Program-made: the position numbers and the translations under genes
Shown here: positions 13,762 through 21,487 of the stretch, one piece after another
Position numbering within the stretch: the stretch's first letter is position 1
How the letters are laid out: the number at the start of each line of letters is the position of its first letter
From: a virus
Lineage: Duplodnaviria > Caudoviricetes
Length of the DNA: 30,619 nt
Virus record (IMG/VR): IMGVR_UViG_3300006118_000028
Span: 1 to 30,619 of that record
Strand: one strand, 5' to 3'
Notes under the pieces: model-generated
Told to the model about the DNA's origin: nothing
The model's database searches: none
The model's input: the letters and a program-made list of their open reading frames with translations, nothing else

Positions 13762-13964
13762 CGATAGTATTTCAATGGGAGGGGGGTATTTTACGTTTAC
13801 GCGAATTTAAATAGAGTATATATATTCCCCCCCAGGGGGTTGTCGCGTAGTCAAATCCCCTTGGGTTGGGTTGGGTTCGTCGCGTCAGAGGATCAGGTGT
13901 TCAGGGAAGGGCGCAGAGGGGGAGCGACCACGATGTGGCGCTCCCATCAGATTAGGAGGTTATT

Positions 13965-14120
13965 ATGGATGCGGTTACTAGGTGTTGCACTGTTCGGCCT
14001 GCGCCGGACGGACGTATGCGGATCGATCAGATGCCCGCGCTCCGAGCGTACTTCGGACCTGATATGTTCAAAGAGCCAGAGGCGTTCGCGCGCTGGATTA
14101 GCGAGAGAGGAGGTGAGTAA
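13965..14120 (+). CDS. Small hypothetical protein (51 aa)
   Basis: RBS AGGAGG; MDAVTRCCTVRPAPDG...ERGGE; TAATG-coupled to the next gene. Confidence 0.6.
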   Translation: MDAVTRCCTVRPAPDGRMRIDQMPALRAYFGPDMFKEPEAFARWISERGGE

Positions 14121-14227
14121 TGACTGATCCTAACATGGATATCAGCAACATCCTGTCATGGGGTGTTGTTATCGGTGTTGCCGTACTTGCGGTATTCATC
14201 CGCGACTGGTGGCGTAACCGCCGCTAG
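14120..14227 (+). CDS. 35-aa single-pass membrane protein
   Basis: RBS GGAGGTGA; MTDPNMDISNILSWGVVIGVAVLAVFIRDWWRNRR. Confidence 0.65.
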   Translation: MTDPNMDISNILSWGVVIGVAVLAVFIRDWWRNRR

Positions 14228-14306
14228 TTCCCACCGTGAGGTGGCACGCAGTACATGGTGAACGTAGGGGTCACTATCAGTTCTAGCCCTCGAAAGGAGG
14301 TGAAAT

Positions 14307-14495
14307 ATGAATCGCGAATACATTATCAGTGTGGACGTTGTTATGGCCCTTATCGGGGCTGTGGCTGGCACCGACGATGTGCGTATTGCTGGTTTTGGCC
14401 AGCTTATGCACCTTGAGGTTAATGGCGAGCGCGTTGGGGAGTTTTTTTACATTCGCCCCAACGACGGAGCGCCTATGCCCGTCTACACGCACTAA
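14307..14495 (+). CDS. Hypothetical protein
   Basis: Perfect RBS AAAGGAGGTG. Confidence 0.75.
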   Translation: MNREYIISVDVVMALIGAVAGTDDVRIAGFGQLMHLEVNGERVGEFFYIRPNDGAPMPVYTH

Positions 14496-14542
14496 GGGGT
14501 GACGCCCTTAGTTAGTTGCGGACCCGAAGCCGCGATCACCTC

Positions 14543-14575
14543 ACCTAGGGCGGTTTCGCCACCTTCCTAGGTACT
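14543..14575 (+). ncRNA. Minihelix-like structured element, copy 1
   Basis: ACCTAGG-GCGGT-TTCGCC-ACCTT-CCTAGGT-ACT. Confidence 0.45.
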
Positions 14576-14669
14576 GGGCGTGTTGGCGCGCCCGACGATC
14601 TGGACACCCAACGGGGTCCAGGCCATGACCGGCAAATGTTCGGCCATGGAGTCATAAAAAGGAGCCAAA

Positions 14670-15080
14670 ATGGCTGCTAACACCAACAACAGCAAGGGTG
14701 TCGCCTCGGTCAAGGAGGTCGCTCCGGCGAACCTGTGGCCCGAGGTTGTCCGCGCTAAGGGTGACTCTGTCAACTCTTGCCTGTGCATCACCCGTCGCCC
14801 TGACCTCGACGAGGGTCAGATCTGGGCCTTCCAGATCGGCTGCTCTGACGGCAGGACGACCAAGATGACGTTCAGTCAGGGGCACGACGCGAGGCTCAAG
14901 GGCATCTTCCAGGAGATGTTCTGGACCAACCGTGACATGGTTGTCTACAACGCGGACGGTTCGACCAAGGCCTACGGGTCTGGCATGGACTTCGCTGCGA
15001 CGCGCCAGTGGGAGCACTTCCTCACTGACAGCGCCACGGCCAAGAAGCGCCTCGCCAAGTTGAACGGCACCAAGAGCTGA
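14670..15080 (+). CDS. CxC...C...GHDA putative zinc-binding protein, paralog 1
   Basis: CLC...GC...TKMTFSQGHDAR...WEHFL; RBS AAAGGAG. Confidence 0.85.
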   Translation: MAANTNNSKGVASVKEVAPANLWPEVVRAKGDSVNSCLCITRRPDLDEGQIWAFQIGCSDGRTTKMTFSQGHDARLKGIFQEMFWTNRDMVVYNADGSTKAYGSGMDFAATRQWEHFLTDSATAKKRLAKLNGTKS

Positions 15081-15158
15081 ACCCGTTAGTCGGGGGAGGG
15101 TTTCCTCCCCCGGCCTCCGGGCCGGTGTCCACTCATCTAGCAAAGAAAGGAGGACACC

Positions 15159-15305
15159 ATGAGCAAGCGCAAGCAAGCCACTTACGGCAACGCTGGTTCA
15201 GTCAAGGGCGACGACCTTTGGCACGAACTGGTTCGTCAGGCTGAGGAAGCGGCGGCGATCGAGATGATCGAGCGTGCCTTCCCCGGCGTCATTGAGGTCA
15301 ACTGA
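15159..15305 (+). CDS. Small hypothetical protein (48 aa)
   Basis: RBS AAAGGAGG; MSKRKQATYGNAGSVKGDDLWHEL...IEVN. Confidence 0.7.
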   Translation: MSKRKQATYGNAGSVKGDDLWHELVRQAEEAAAIEMIERAFPGVIEVN

Positions 15306-15310
15306 CCTCG

Positions 15311-15344
15311 GCCTCGGCTAGGCTCGACACCTAGTCGGGGCGCT
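15311..15344 (+). ncRNA. Minihelix-like structured element, copy 2
   Basis: GCCTCGG-CTAGG-CTCGACA-CCTAG-TCGGGGC-GCT (12-bp stem, 7-nt loop). Confidence 0.55.
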
Positions 15345-15385
15345 ACTACCGAACGCGTCGGTAGTAATAACAAGGAGGAACCCAA

Positions 15386-15739
15386 ATGGGTGACTACACG
15401 TTGGAAGAGGACCCCGACTTCATAGCGAACAATAAAGCAATCGCTTCGCTTGGTATCGACGGGTTCCCTTACACTACCAACTTGGTGATGGATGCTGTGA
15501 TCATCGCTTGGCGGATCGACATTCTGTCGTTCTGGAAGCAGTTTGAGTTGGTCAACGTGCACCTGGAGCGCTTGGAGTGGATCGTCGATCAACTTCAAGA
15601 CGAGGTGCACCCACATCAGGGGTGGGCGAACTTGAACACGGTCACTGGCCGAGCTTACGCTCGCGAGTACCACATCGCGTTGATGTGCCTCGTTAGTGCG
15701 CGTGAGTCAAGTTTCACCCCACCAACTGAGCAATGCTAG
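15386..15739 (+). CDS. Hypothetical protein
   Basis: RBS AAGGAGG. Confidence 0.8.
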   Translation: MGDYTLEEDPDFIANNKAIASLGIDGFPYTTNLVMDAVIIAWRIDILSFWKQFELVNVHLERLEWIVDQLQDEVHPHQGWANLNTVTGRAYAREYHIALMCLVSARESSFTPPTEQC

Positions 15740-15753
15740 GTCAGCAATGACCG

Positions 15754-15787
15754 GCCTGGGTTGGGTTCGCCACCCTTCCCAGGCGCT
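15754..15787 (+). ncRNA. Minihelix-like structured element, copy 3
   Basis: GCCTGGG-TTGGG-TTCGCCA-CCCTT-CCCAGGC-GCT. Confidence 0.55.
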
Positions 15788-15817
15788 CCCGAAAGGGAAG
15801 AAAGGATGGTTAGCCAA

Positions 15818-16045
15818 ATGAGCACCATCAATAGAGAGGCGGACGTCATGAACTGGGTAAATGCCCAGATCGAGGCGGACCGCGCACTTGCCGAAGCAAA
15901 GCGGACAGCCCGTACGGGTCCCGCAGTTAAGGCAAGGGACGCGTGGCGTAAAGCGGCGGAGGCGCAAGACCGAGTTGGTCGGTTCGTCGGTCGTGACTAT
16001 GCCATTCGTCAGGCCCAAGGTTGGGCCGCTCGCTGCGAGGACTGA
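15818..16045 (+). CDS. Hypothetical helical protein (75 aa)
   Basis: Start revised to ATG 15818 after AAAGGATGGT. Confidence 0.7.
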   Translation: MSTINREADVMNWVNAQIEADRALAEAKRTARTGPAVKARDAWRKAAEAQDRVGRFVGRDYAIRQAQGWAARCED

Positions 16046-16060
16046 CCGCCCAAGTGGTCG

Positions 16061-16093
16061 GCTCAGGTCGGGTTCGTCCCCGGCCTGGGCGCT
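16061..16093 (+). ncRNA. Minihelix-like structured element, copy 4
   Basis: GCTCAGG-TCGGG-TTCGTC-CCCGG-CCTGGGC-GCT. Confidence 0.5.
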
Positions 16094-16181
16094 GAGCGTG
16101 GCGGCGCTCAAAGGTCTGTCCCTAATAGGGGCAGGACACAACCGGCAAATGTCCGGTTGTGTAGTCAATAGGAGAAATACC

Positions 16182-16577
16182 ATGGCTACCGCCAACCGTA
16201 AGGCAAGTGCAACCCGTGAGACCTCGATCAACGAGGTGTTCACGGTTCGAACCCCTCACAAGGAGGGCAACAACCCCTGCATCTGCGTCGTGCGTGACAC
16301 GGCGTCCGATGAGGCGGGTGTCTGGGCCTTCATCACGGAGGCTTGCACTGGTCACACCAAGAAGAGCTTCGCTCAGGGACACGACGCCCGCTACAAGTCG
16401 AACCTGATCGCGGCGAACCGGGCTGGCATGAAGGTGAAGATCACCAATGCCAAGACCGGAGCCACCTTCACGGCTTTGCCGCTGGAGTGGGCTGCGTTGA
16501 GGGAGTGGGAGCGCTTCCTCACCGAAGGTGCGGCCAACAAGAAGGCACTGGCCAAGCTCAACGGTGAGCAGGGCTAG
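16182..16577 (+). CDS. CxC...C...GHDA putative zinc-binding protein, paralog 2
   Basis: Start revised to ATG 16182 (RBS AGGAG); CIC...AC...TKKSFAQGHDAR...WERFL...LAKLNG, clearly similar to 14670-15080. Confidence 0.85.
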   Translation: MATANRKASATRETSINEVFTVRTPHKEGNNPCICVVRDTASDEAGVWAFITEACTGHTKKSFAQGHDARYKSNLIAANRAGMKVKITNAKTGATFTALPLEWAALREWERFLTEGAANKKALAKLNGEQG

Positions 16578-16682
16578 CGCCTAGGGTAACCAACCGAGGG
16601 GTGGGGGCAACCTCACCCCCCGGTCATGCCCAACTGCACGAAAGGAGGCAACAGTGCAGAATCACGTTCATATCCCCACGAT

Positions 16683-17002
16683 GTGGAGGAGACTATTAAA
16701 TTTTGGTTTGGTTTGATTTAATTAAATTAAGCGCTCGGCGGGGGAAACAAAACCAAAAGAAAGGAGATTTAGTTTGATTTATTTAAATAGAATACCATGC
16801 GCCGTTCGATTTGGTGGAGAAGACTATGTTCTCTCAAACTGGTTTGATTTAGCTAAATTGAGCCGACGCCGGGGGACGGTTTGGTTTCACCAATCTGAAT
16901 TTGGTTTTTAAAAATTAAATTAACCGGGCAAGCCGGTTGTGTTCCTGAACCTAAATCAGATCAGACCAAAAGAGACGCGACGGCTTGGTTCGGTTAAATT
17001 AA
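16683..17002. repeat. AT-rich non-coding island with imperfect 131-bp tandem duplication and ATTTAnnTAAAT palindromes
   Basis: GTGGAG(G/A)AGACTAT at 16683 and 16814; GTTTGATTTAnnTAAAT at 16711, 16772 and 16842. Confidence 0.75.
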
Positions 17003-17102
17003 AGCCCCCTTTTCACGCTCAGCAAGCGTAAACCCCGGCTCCGACCCCCTGTTCTGTTTATAACAAGCCAACCCTCCCATGGGGTCTGCTTCAAAACCGG
17101 GC

Positions 17103-19241: not shown

Positions 19242-19523
19242 ATGATCACAATCGAAGGAAACGACATCAGGCTGAAAGGCAGCACGCACAAGTTCAATTT
19301 CAACGGCATGGCCGAGTACGTTTACCAAGCCTCGCTCGACCCTTTATGGGGAGGCGAGATGACAGGTGACAGCGACTTCGGCTGGGCTGTGATTAAGGGG
19401 AAGCGAGTGTTGTGGTGCGATCCCAACGGGTCGGTCTGGCTTTCTCGATACGCCACCCCCACTGAAGCCGAATCCTCCTACCAGGAGTTTTACGACCTTT
19501 TCCAAGGAGTAGACGCAGAATGA
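19242..19523 (+). CDS. Hypothetical protein
   Basis: Start revised to ATG 19242 with RBS AAAGGAG. Confidence 0.75.
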   Translation: MITIEGNDIRLKGSTHKFNFNGMAEYVYQASLDPLWGGEMTGDSDFGWAVIKGKRVLWCDPNGSVWLSRYATPTEAESSYQEFYDLFQGVDAE

Positions 19524-19544
19524 AAGTGTACAGACTGACCAGTT

Positions 19545-20082
19545 CAGATGACAGCACGCCTAACAATCAAGGGGGAGCGATGAGCAAGAACACAAACAAA
19601 GGAAAGATCATGACAATCCACGATTTCAAGGACGGCAACGGACCAGTCCCAGCCCACCAGCACTCGAACGGAGGCGGGTGGGTTGCAGACACAGCCACAG
19701 TTGAGGATACCGTTTATGTCGGTCCTGACGCTCGGGTCTACGGCGACGCTTGGGTCCACGGCAACGCTCTGGTCTACGGCAACGCTGAGGTCGGTGGAAC
19801 CGCTGAGGTCTACGGCAACGCTGAGGTCGGTGGCACCGTTCGGGTCCTAAGCGGCTTCGCGTTCGTCATCAAGAAAGACGACTGGCAGATCACCGAGGTA
19901 CCGAATGGCAACGGCACCACCACCCTCTACGCCAATGCTGAGTTTGAGCCAGTGGAGATTGAGACGACCAAGCCCGACCTGCCACTCGTCATTCTCGATA
20001 ATGTCACCTACGAACTGCGACCCTTTATGGGGAGGCGAGATGACAGATGACAGCACGCCTAACAATCAAGGGGGAGCGATGA
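19545..20082 (+). repeat. Exact 39-bp direct repeats (19545-19583 and 20044-20082) flanking the hexapeptide-repeat gene
   Basis: CAGATGACAGCACGCCTAACAATCAAGGGGGAGCGATGA occurs twice. Confidence 0.9.
19580..20050 (+). CDS. Hexapeptide-repeat (left-handed beta-helix-like) protein
   Basis: VYGDAWVHGNALVYGNAEVGGTAEVYGNAEV repeats; alternative starts at 19520 and 19610. Confidence 0.8.
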   Translation: MSKNTNKGKIMTIHDFKDGNGPVPAHQHSNGGGWVADTATVEDTVYVGPDARVYGDAWVHGNALVYGNAEVGGTAEVYGNAEVGGTVRVLSGFAFVIKKDDWQITEVPNGNGTTTLYANAEFEPVEIETTKPDLPLVILDNVTYELRPFMGRRDDR

Positions 20083-20227: not shown

Positions 20228-21487
20228 ATGGCACGCGTCTCTGTCTTCACGCCCAGCCACCGCAGAACACATCTTGATGAATGCGCACGTTCGATGCTTG
20301 CCCAAACCTACGAGGACTGGGAGTGGATCGTTGTCCTGAACGGTTCAAACCGTTGGACGCCTTCGGTTAGCGATCCGCGTATCAAGGTCTCAGTTGCCGA
20401 CTCGTCAGTCACTGGCGTCGGCGCTGCGAAGCGGTGGGCCTGCTCACTTGCCTCGGGAGAGTTCCTAGTTGAGTACGACCATGACGACATCCTGGCCTCA
20501 AGGTGTCTTGAGAAGGTCGTCAAGGCCTTTGATAGCCATCCCGACGCGGGATTTGTCTACAGCCACTTTGCACAGATCAATGAGGACGGCAGCCGGAACG
20601 ACGATCGATTTAATTCGGTCATGGGTTGGATCTACGATGAAGTTGAGGTTGATGGGAAGGCCTATCTGCAATGCAGATCGATGGAACCGCTCCCAAGCAA
20701 TGTCAGCTACATCTGGTTCGCACCCAATCATGTTCGAGCGTTCCGTCGCACGGCGTACGAAGCGATCGGCGGCTACAACCCAGAGTTAGACATCTTGGAC
20801 GATCAAGACATCATGTGCAGGCTCTATCAGCACTCGGATTTTCACATGATTGATGAATGCCTCTACCTCCAGAGAATGCACGACAGGAACACCCAGCGCG
20901 ATCCCAAACTGAACGCAAGGATTCAAGCTGAAACGGTCGCACTCTATGATGCCAACATTGAGGCGAATGCGTTGGCTTGGGCTCAACGACGAGGACTGCT
21001 ATGCCTCGATCTCGGAGCCGCTCATCGGAAGCCTGATGGCTATATCGGTGTCGATCAGCACGAGGCTCAGGGAGTCGACATCGTGTGTGACGTGACCAAG
21101 GGAATCGATTTTCCTGACGGAAGCGTCGGGGTGATTCGCGCCGTCGACTTCTTTGAGCACATCCCTGACAAGATCGCTTTATTTAATGAGCTCTACCGGC
21201 TTCTCGAACATGGAGGGATTCTGCTCAGCAATACGCCGAGCACTGATGGCCGAGGCGCTTTCCAGGACCCGACGCACGTCGCCTTCTACAATGAGAATTC
21301 GTTTTGGTACTTCACTGATGCCAACTACTCAGCGTTCGTGCCCGAGATCATGTGCCGCTTTCATTCGTCTCGTCTTGTGACGTTTTTCCCGAACGAGTGG
21401 CACGAACAACGCAATATAAGTTACGTCAACGCCAATCTCGTGGCGATCAAGGACGGACCTAGAATTGCTGGCATCAATTCCATATGA
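20228..21487 (+). CDS. Family 2 glycosyltransferase fused to class I SAM-methyltransferase-like domain
   Basis: RVSVFTPS...QTYEDWEWIVV...YDHDD (DxD)...DDQD; C-terminal LDLGAA...VDIVCD...FFEHI...DPTH. Confidence 0.9.
   Translation: MARVSVFTPSHRRTHLDECARSMLAQTYEDWEWIVVLNGSNRWTPSVSDPRIKVSVADSSVTGVGAAKRWACSLASGEFLVEYDHDDILASRCLEKVVKAFDSHPDAGFVYSHFAQINEDGSRNDDRFNSVMGWIYDEVEVDGKAYLQCRSMEPLPSNVSYIWFAPNHVRAFRRTAYEAIGGYNPELDILDDQDIMCRLYQHSDFHMIDECLYLQRMHDRNTQRDPKLNARIQAETVALYDANIEANALAWAQRRGLLCLDLGAAHRKPDGYIGVDQHEAQGVDIVCDVTKGIDFPDGSVGVIRAVDFFEHIPDKIALFNELYRLLEHGGILLSNTPSTDGRGAFQDPTHVAFYNENSFWYFTDANYSAFVPEIMCRFHSSRLVTFFPNEWHEQRNISYVNANLVAIKDGPRIAGINSI

Follow-up and report, generated by a model that had tools for sequence, protein, structure and literature searches.

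Four short hairpins in the spacers between small early genes of an uncultured phage are a real, selected and lineage-specific RNA repeat. Tentatively, we regard them as signals at which one polycistronic early RNA would be cut and protected, RNase P being the most likely enzyme. What is new here is the contrast within one early gene family, which has a promoter in nearly every spacer in the phages Hiyaa and Galactica and promoter-free hairpin spacers in the phage studied here.

The phage and its early gene cluster

The window, i.e., the whole stretch of 30,619 nt that was analysed, is part of a larger genome of at least 47-55 kb. It encodes a terminase, a portal protein, an endolysin, a family A polymerase, a primase-polymerase, a dUTPase-like protein and an adenylosuccinate-synthetase homologue, and belongs to a tailed phage from freshwater metagenomes (at least 0.91 of the sampled words were present in six runs, of which two may be its source). 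All 128 polymerase matches under E 1e-60 were from actinophages, which points to a likely actinobacterial host. The synthetase homologue has a Ser in its GQFGSEGKG motif, which we take to be the PurZ signature, and its best solved relative is 7VF6; together these suggest that the phage likely encodes PurZ and has a Z-genome. The probable Z-genome module of this uncultured freshwater phage (24158-28496) comprises the PurZ-like synthetase, the dUTPase-like gene, a tRNA-Leu(TAA) and the family A polymerase.

Some other parts of the window are variable or repetitive. The region 19337-20082 contains a 39-nt exact repeat (19545-19583 and 20044-20082) and a 37-nt repeat, and in one contig position 20043 is followed by 19545, which suggests that a 499-nt gene module is duplicated in tandem or forms a circle. 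A glycosyltransferase-methyltransferase fusion gene (20228-21487) is the most variable part among the compared contigs.

The early cluster (13965-16577) consists of small co-directional genes with strong ribosome-binding sites. Two of them, both on the plus strand, are paralogous and code for a 136-aa protein (14670..15080) and a 131-aa protein (16182..16577) with 37% identity. Their family carries a CxC..C..GHDA signature; the three Cys residues and GHDA are invariant and possibly form a metal site. No family was found for the protein in Pfam or PHROGs and no usable match in the ESM Atlas. Between 14.3 and 16.95 kb the contig depth in four runs was 1.6-2.6-fold the depth of the flanks, a value that is not a copy number and comes from runs selected for this stretch. 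The depth gives a weak hint of a long terminal repeat of about 3 kb (13897..17048, no strand assigned), inside which the whole early cluster would lie. One variant was listed in the region among the metagenome contigs, at 14529 in the loop of hairpin A1 (single contig).

Anatomy of the hairpins

The sequence-only reading had described four hairpins of 30-31 nt with a 7-bp outer stem, a 5-bp inner stem, a YTCG-led loop of 6-7 nt and an (A/G)CT tail, and all four were recovered at the positions given. They lie on the plus strand and are termed E1-E4 here. E1 (14543..14572) has 11-12 bp and a UUCG-containing loop, is preceded by an open leader of 7 nt and is followed by AC and hairpin B1. E2 (15311..15341) has 12 bp and a CUCG-led loop of 7 nt, E3 (15754..15784) a stem of 12 positions with two U-U mismatches and a 7-nt loop, and E4 (16061..16090) either 12 bp and a 6-nt loop or 11 bp and an 8-nt loop; these three are followed by GC and hairpins B2, B3 and B4, respectively. 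As had been noted, the inner stem is imperfect in two copies, with one mismatch in the copy at 14543 and two in that at 15754. The copies at 14543 and 16061 can equally be drawn with 11 bp and an 8-nt loop.

Every core hairpin has a 5' arm of 12 nt and a loop led by YUCG, and is followed by two unpaired bases (RC) and, directly after them, a second hairpin. Each has 12 stem positions, 10-12 of them paired. The distance from the 5' base to YTCG is 12 nt in every copy, and the 3' arm varies by one nucleotide. Six stem pairs change, but the loop letters U-C-G and C and the tail C are the same in every copy, which suggests that unpaired bases are recognised.

The unit as a whole reads stop codon, hairpin A, one G (in three of the four copies), core hairpin, RC, hairpin B and ribosome site. 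A1 (14516..14535) ends 7 nt before E1. A2 (15294..15309) spans the stop codon, and A3 (15739..15752) and A4 (16044..16059) begin within it; each is separated from its core by one G. Downstream lie B1 (14575..14594), B2 (15344..15366, directly 5' of the ribosome-binding site), B3 (15787..15798, with a GAAA tetraloop, 5' of the ribosome-binding site) and B4 (16093..16110), all flanking hairpins being on the plus strand. The flanking hairpins quoted in the earlier reading were thus all present, and close flanking holds for all four cores except that the copy at 14543, with its open leader, has no abutting 5' hairpin.

The core element is absent from two of the six cluster spacers of at least 60 nt. 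An orphan 5' half with no pairing 3' arm (13862..13884, plus strand) is possibly a decayed copy.

E1 and E4 both precede the paralogous genes, and their place 5' of a duplicated gene suggests that the hairpin copies share ancestry. A second repeat is found near the same genes: hairpins with a CAAAUG loop, D1 (14623..14649) and D2 (16136..16162), lie on the plus strand directly 5' of the ribosome sites of the first and the second paralogue and are candidate autoregulatory binding sites. Behind the paralogues, also on the plus strand, are two similar long, G-rich, imperfect hairpins, F1 (15082..15121, in a spacer without a core element) and F2 (16584..16632).

Statistics, covariation and strand

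A descriptor written post hoc from E1-E4 matched exactly four times in the window when both strands were searched, always on the plus strand, and had no match in 300 dinucleotide shuffles of 13800-16700. Hairpins of 12 bp with any loop of 6-7 nt occurred at a mean of 0.68 per shuffle, with at most 4 in a single one. With a looser descriptor, 15 hits were obtained in 0.97 Mb of other phage loci, none of them with the RCT tail.

Compensatory changes on both sides were seen in six of the 12 stem pairs, so the earlier statement that pairing is kept while the stem sequences differ was borne out. Six such double-sided changes were reached in two of 500 shuffles, and the covariation score in none of 500; the comparison concerns four paralogous copies from which the structure itself was derived and is not an independent phylogenetic test. 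With a model built from E1-E4 the copies score 40-46 bits, and the next match in the window 13.4 bits.

On the plus strand the wobbles in the cores are five G-U and no A-C, and those in the A and B flanks four and none, which argues for folding as sense RNA. The folding energy of the whole spacer favours the plus strand in only three of the four element spacers.

Likeness to tRNA and to RNase P substrates

In tRNA, U54 and A58 are the positions of the T-loop pair. This pair is absent from all four cores, in which U is opposed to C, C to A, U to C and U to U. Compared with the T-arm motif used for t-elements, GGTTCRANYCC (PMC1920247), the core hairpins agree in 8, 9, 9 and 10 of 11 letters, and none is complete. 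In 285 kb of DNA from related phages, 125 (8.4%) of the 1486 strong hairpins reach 8 of 11 letters and 21 reach 9.

A review of RNase P describes a 12-bp ruler, pairing with RCCA, a preference for U-1 and an unpaired leader (PMC10731613). Of these and the related features the elements have the ruler, a G at +1 in three of the four cores, and a purine discriminator followed by C in all four; no N-1/N73 pairing extends the stem. They lack U-1: N-1 is G or C in all copies, never the preferred U. They also lack a free RCCA, since the tail is RC and then a U that is paired within hairpin B in all four copies. When folded as naked RNA, the leader is open in E1 and paired in E2-E4; with a ribosome footprint forced at the stop codon the leaders of E3 and E4 open with the core intact, and the core of E2 melts. 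According to the same review, a paired leader can make RNase P slower by orders of magnitude, and the enzyme also cuts mRNA and phage RNA hairpins without a T-loop (PMC10731613). Hairpins of acceptor plus T-stem are substrates as well, and replacement of the T-loop in model hairpins lowered cleavage without abolishing it (PMC10465520).

From their letters, then, the elements fail as canonical T-arm mimics, and they could still be RNase P sites. Of the tRNA-minihelix shape proposed earlier, the 12-bp helix and the 8-10 of 11 T-arm letters stand; the T-loop pair and the RCCA end do not, and background hairpins likewise reach 8 of 11.

Promoters in this phage and in its relatives

The promoter family of this phage has a TTGACA-type -35 box and an 18-nt spacer, often with GGCAAA inside. 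Seven of the 11 regular-expression promoter matches belong to this conserved family (11671, 12894, 13761, 17103, 19170, 22762 and 26594), and no member was found on the plus strand between 13.83 and 16.7 kb. One promoter-like match lies at 15632, inside a gene of the early cluster. As the head of the cluster we propose an AT-rich candidate promoter (13790..13826, plus strand) with TANNNT hexamers at 13812 and 13821, which is below the threshold of the promoter search. Five AT-rich repeats, 61-84 nt apart, are found at 16700-17010. The best copies resemble the TGATTTAAT -10 segment of the Hiyaa early promoters, without their -35 box; tandem promoters, an origin or a genome-end signal are candidate roles.

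A profile of both paralogues found 83 proteins up to E 0.001 with the CxC..C..GHDA signature. One family member matches the Streptomyces phages Hiyaa, Galactica, Spocter and Keanu in 4-5 places each, and a search with the family alignment found 15 IMG/VR loci, some of them near-duplicates. In the Hiyaa-type relatives the order in the spacer is stop, hairpin, promoter, 5' hairpin and ribosome site. The promoter motif is present in 14 of 15 Hiyaa and 12 of 14 Galactica spacers (26/29), as against none of six spacers here. The comparison of promoter-free spacers with one promoter per gene suggests that the early cluster is probably a single polycistronic transcript starting from about 13.83 kb, and that the elements stand where the relatives make new 5' ends by initiation. 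The idea that the hairpins punctuate the early operon gains support from the promoter-free spacers, the fixed geometry and the sense-strand folding; the cleavage that it includes is a prediction.

Other layouts occur among the relatives. Near-identical promoters stand before almost every early gene of Hiyaa (L242, 18790-25900) and Galactica (L250), with an inverted repeat in the interval from -35 to -10 and T as the second base of the -10 box. Loci L227 (5800-7970), L234 (5800-7650) and L240 (5770-7070) have repeated cassettes with the -35 box in the loop of an 11-13-bp hairpin, 17 nt before an extended -10 box. In L238 (4174-4305) a gene of the same family is followed by a spacer that has no promoter and three abutting hairpins; its sequence is different and its layout similar.

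The outer stems of E1-E4 are of a type that is generic in related phages. The promoter-linked hairpins of record G157 have similar stems and a loop that holds the -35 box and differs by one G from the start of the E3 loop; they align with E1-E4 at 58% mean column identity and score 8-9 of 11 T-arm letters. E1-E4 may therefore be remodelled cassette hairpins whose tRNA look is incidental.

Searches for the element elsewhere

The sequence-only reading had suggested a comparison with Rfam, in which its view that the motif is not a described one held: no Rfam 15 family reached the gathering threshold, the best local match being PtaRNA1 with 18.5 bits where 47 are needed. The only Rfam match in the window is the tRNA-Leu, away from the hairpins. 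The literature covered, which included few subscription papers, gave no description of a motif of these four hairpins.

By blastn, the region had no match among 50,697 phages. No relatives came out of close-peptide scans of IMG/VR in which the early protein and the terminase were used, and an alignment search with the terminase gave distant loci only (up to 45%). Closer relatives are known as proteins, with terminases 75-82% identical and also P0122 and P0204. A scan of metagenomes recovered this genome again (L135, 100% identical) and a short relative, L136, which lacks the element. Among the early-gene-family loci (12 of the 15, the others exceeding the size limit) the best score was 22.3 bits, in five named phage records it was 25.8 bits and in four IMG/VR records 23.2 bits, so that no copy of the element was found in them; these records are distant relatives and do not address conservation at orthologous sites.

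Pattern scans of IMG/VR gave 0, 1 and 35 matches, and one of the 35 was fully paired, at the same locus as the single match. This perfect hairpin (locus L081, 3001-3034, minus strand, 45.3 bits) has the E2 loop and a GCT tail and lies directly after a coat-like gene in an apparent actinobacterial filamentous phage unrelated to ours. The rough chance expectation is 0.2-2 such matches and no relative of the L081 phage was found, so the hairpin is compatible with chance and was not counted as support. A hairpin of Gordonia phage TZGordon (19.9 bits) has only stem and tail in common with the element, and two hairpins with a GG-CTCG loop in L227 and L234 appear on the strand opposite to the next gene.

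Several other identities of the element were considered and rejected. Intrinsic terminators of the classical kind are excluded by the one or two T in the next 10 nt, and terminator prediction did not call the hairpins. For a sigma70 promoter with its -35 box in the loop, no -10 box is present at 17-18 nt. A Y-RNA-like permuted tRNA has its arms in a different order. The element did not emerge as a host repeat of the REP type: none of 17 pattern matches was fully paired, and only one of 151 genomes had a match, apparently coding, in a weak test that scored 46 candidates per genome.

Possible functions of the hairpins

According to the explanation that we tentatively prefer, a host tRNA-processing nuclease, most likely RNase P, would cut the long early transcript into separately protected mRNAs. 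The enzyme would measure about 12 bp from the UCG loop and cleave on the 5' side of the stem. Hairpin A would thereby come to close the upstream message, and the downstream message would begin with paired bases at its 5' end and hairpin B, so that both would be shielded against exonucleases. A second, RNase Z-like cut after the purine would be possible and is not needed. Since hairpin A overlaps the upstream stop codon, a terminating ribosome could, speculatively, open the leader. The element itself probably arose from the hairpin of an ancestral hairpin-promoter cassette. The fuller scenario, in which this phage lineage turned the promoter-per-gene cassette of its relatives into mimics of the tRNA top half, cut by RNase P with or without RNase Z and possibly gated by the ribosome, so that phage early mRNAs would be punctuated in the manner of mitochondria, we consider doubtful. 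Counted against cleavage and protection were the missing U54-A58 pair, free RCCA and U-1, the paired leaders of E2-E4, the generic outer stems, the failure to find the element in relatives, the two of six spacers without it and the promoter-like match at 15632.

A close rival, and a possible one, is that the hairpins are passive stabilisers, namely U-less, GC-rich roadblocks at 3' or 5' ends, or weak attenuators, that remained from the hairpin-promoter cassette of the ancestor. The likeness to tRNA would be a coincidence: a -35-containing loop minus one G gives a UUCG-type loop, which duplication would have spread. The relatives indeed fill the same slots with stop, hairpin, promoter, 5' hairpin and ribosome site; the elements can be aligned with their stems and loops, and outer stems of this type are common. 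Stable 3' ends lacking U are a class described in Streptomyces (PMC8269248). The 125 of 1486 background hairpins with 8 of 11 T-arm letters and the shared ancestry of the copies, seen in E1 and E4 preceding duplicated genes, fit this explanation as well. It leaves unexplained, however, why the 12-nt ruler, the loop core and the exact RC linker are invariant while the stems diverge. Moreover, in spacers without internal promoters hairpin B shields a 5' end only if something creates one, and with so few T after each core the hairpins are not classical terminators.

Unlikely, in our view, is that the elements are bound by RNA polymerase or by a protein of phage or host, for example as put-like antiterminators that would let transcription pass through the cluster without internal promoters, or as start sites of a phage-specific transcription system. 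RNA antiterminators of the put type consist of two stems split by one base, an arrangement that hairpin A, one G and the core hairpin reproduce in three of four copies. The elements also occupy the slots that hold promoters in the relatives, and a cognate factor could lie outside the window. Yet of an antiterminator one would expect a single copy close to the promoter and not copies in four spacers, and there is no -10 box 17-18 nt from the loop. N4-type promoters are hairpins of the template strand, whereas the G-U asymmetry favours the RNA or the non-template strand.

We rate as improbable a fourth account, by which the hairpins are RNase III sites as in T7 early RNA, with a single cut after the 2-nt RC overhang, so that the core hairpin would stay with the upstream message and the next message would open with hairpin B. 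Hairpin B begins exactly two nucleotides after the stem in all four copies. Polycistronic RNAs of T7 are processed by such sites (PMC6938266), and in a minimal substrate of 34 nt one set of proximal and distal boxes suffices (PMC1540722). Here, however, the two flanks show no mutual pairing, and the site is therefore not spanned by a helix. GC/CG pairs are described as antideterminants at some box positions for the E. coli enzyme, and the stems here are rich in GC; its choice of site is moreover independent of the loop (PMC1540722), in contrast to the conserved loop of the elements. F1 and F2 look more like RNase III substrates than the cores do.

The released tRNA-mimic decoys that the sequence-only reading had also offered, directed against a tRNA-targeting host defence or tRNA enzymes, found no support and are very unlikely, for the hairpins have the size and shape of a tRNA top half but no anticodon arm, no CCA end, a non-canonical T-loop and no dedicated promoter or array, and occur singly between stop codon and ribosome-binding site.

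If RNase P does cut the hairpins, they would be natural minimal substrates that repeatedly punctuate protein-coding phage mRNA, and a clear case in which a transcriptional cassette was replaced by a post-transcriptional one within one phage gene family. The four natural variants lend themselves to testing how much departure from a canonical T-loop and tail bacterial RNase P accepts. As passive stabilisers they would be one more lineage-specific family of intercistronic hairpins.

Comparison with known systems

Among the described hairpin substrates of RNase P are the pATSer minihelices, a hairpin in hisCD mRNA, the M3 RNA of phi80 and the C4 phage RNA (PMC10731613, PMC10465520, PMC11221534). 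Like these, the elements have a helix of about 12 bp, a T-like 7-nt loop, G+1 and a purine discriminator followed by C. Unlike them, they have no free RCCA, no U-1, no U54-A58 pair and mostly paired leaders, and they are four natural intergenic copies in a phage, for which cleavage is a prediction.

The t-elements of plant mitochondria and acceptor-stem-like stem-loops are similarly tRNA-like and intergenic, and are described as proposed or shown to set mRNA ends via RNase P and RNase Z (PMC1920247). As described there, t-elements have the full T-arm motif and a cloverleaf-like fold, whereas the phage elements are single hairpins with 8-10 of its 11 letters.

With the RNase III sites of T7 the elements share the principle of an intercistronic structure that would let a host nuclease divide one early transcript. 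The T7 sites are described as one long duplex (PMC6938266, PMC1540722), whereas each element is a short GC-rich hairpin with a conserved loop and independently folded flanks.

Finally, the PeSL cassettes of T4-type phages (PMC2839356) and the cassettes of Hiyaavirus are, like the elements, repeated and structured and lie between small non-essential early genes, with gene duplication. Those cassettes carry a promoter, as described for PeSL (PMC2839356); the elements, with none in six spacers, have instead a conserved loop and an abutting second hairpin.
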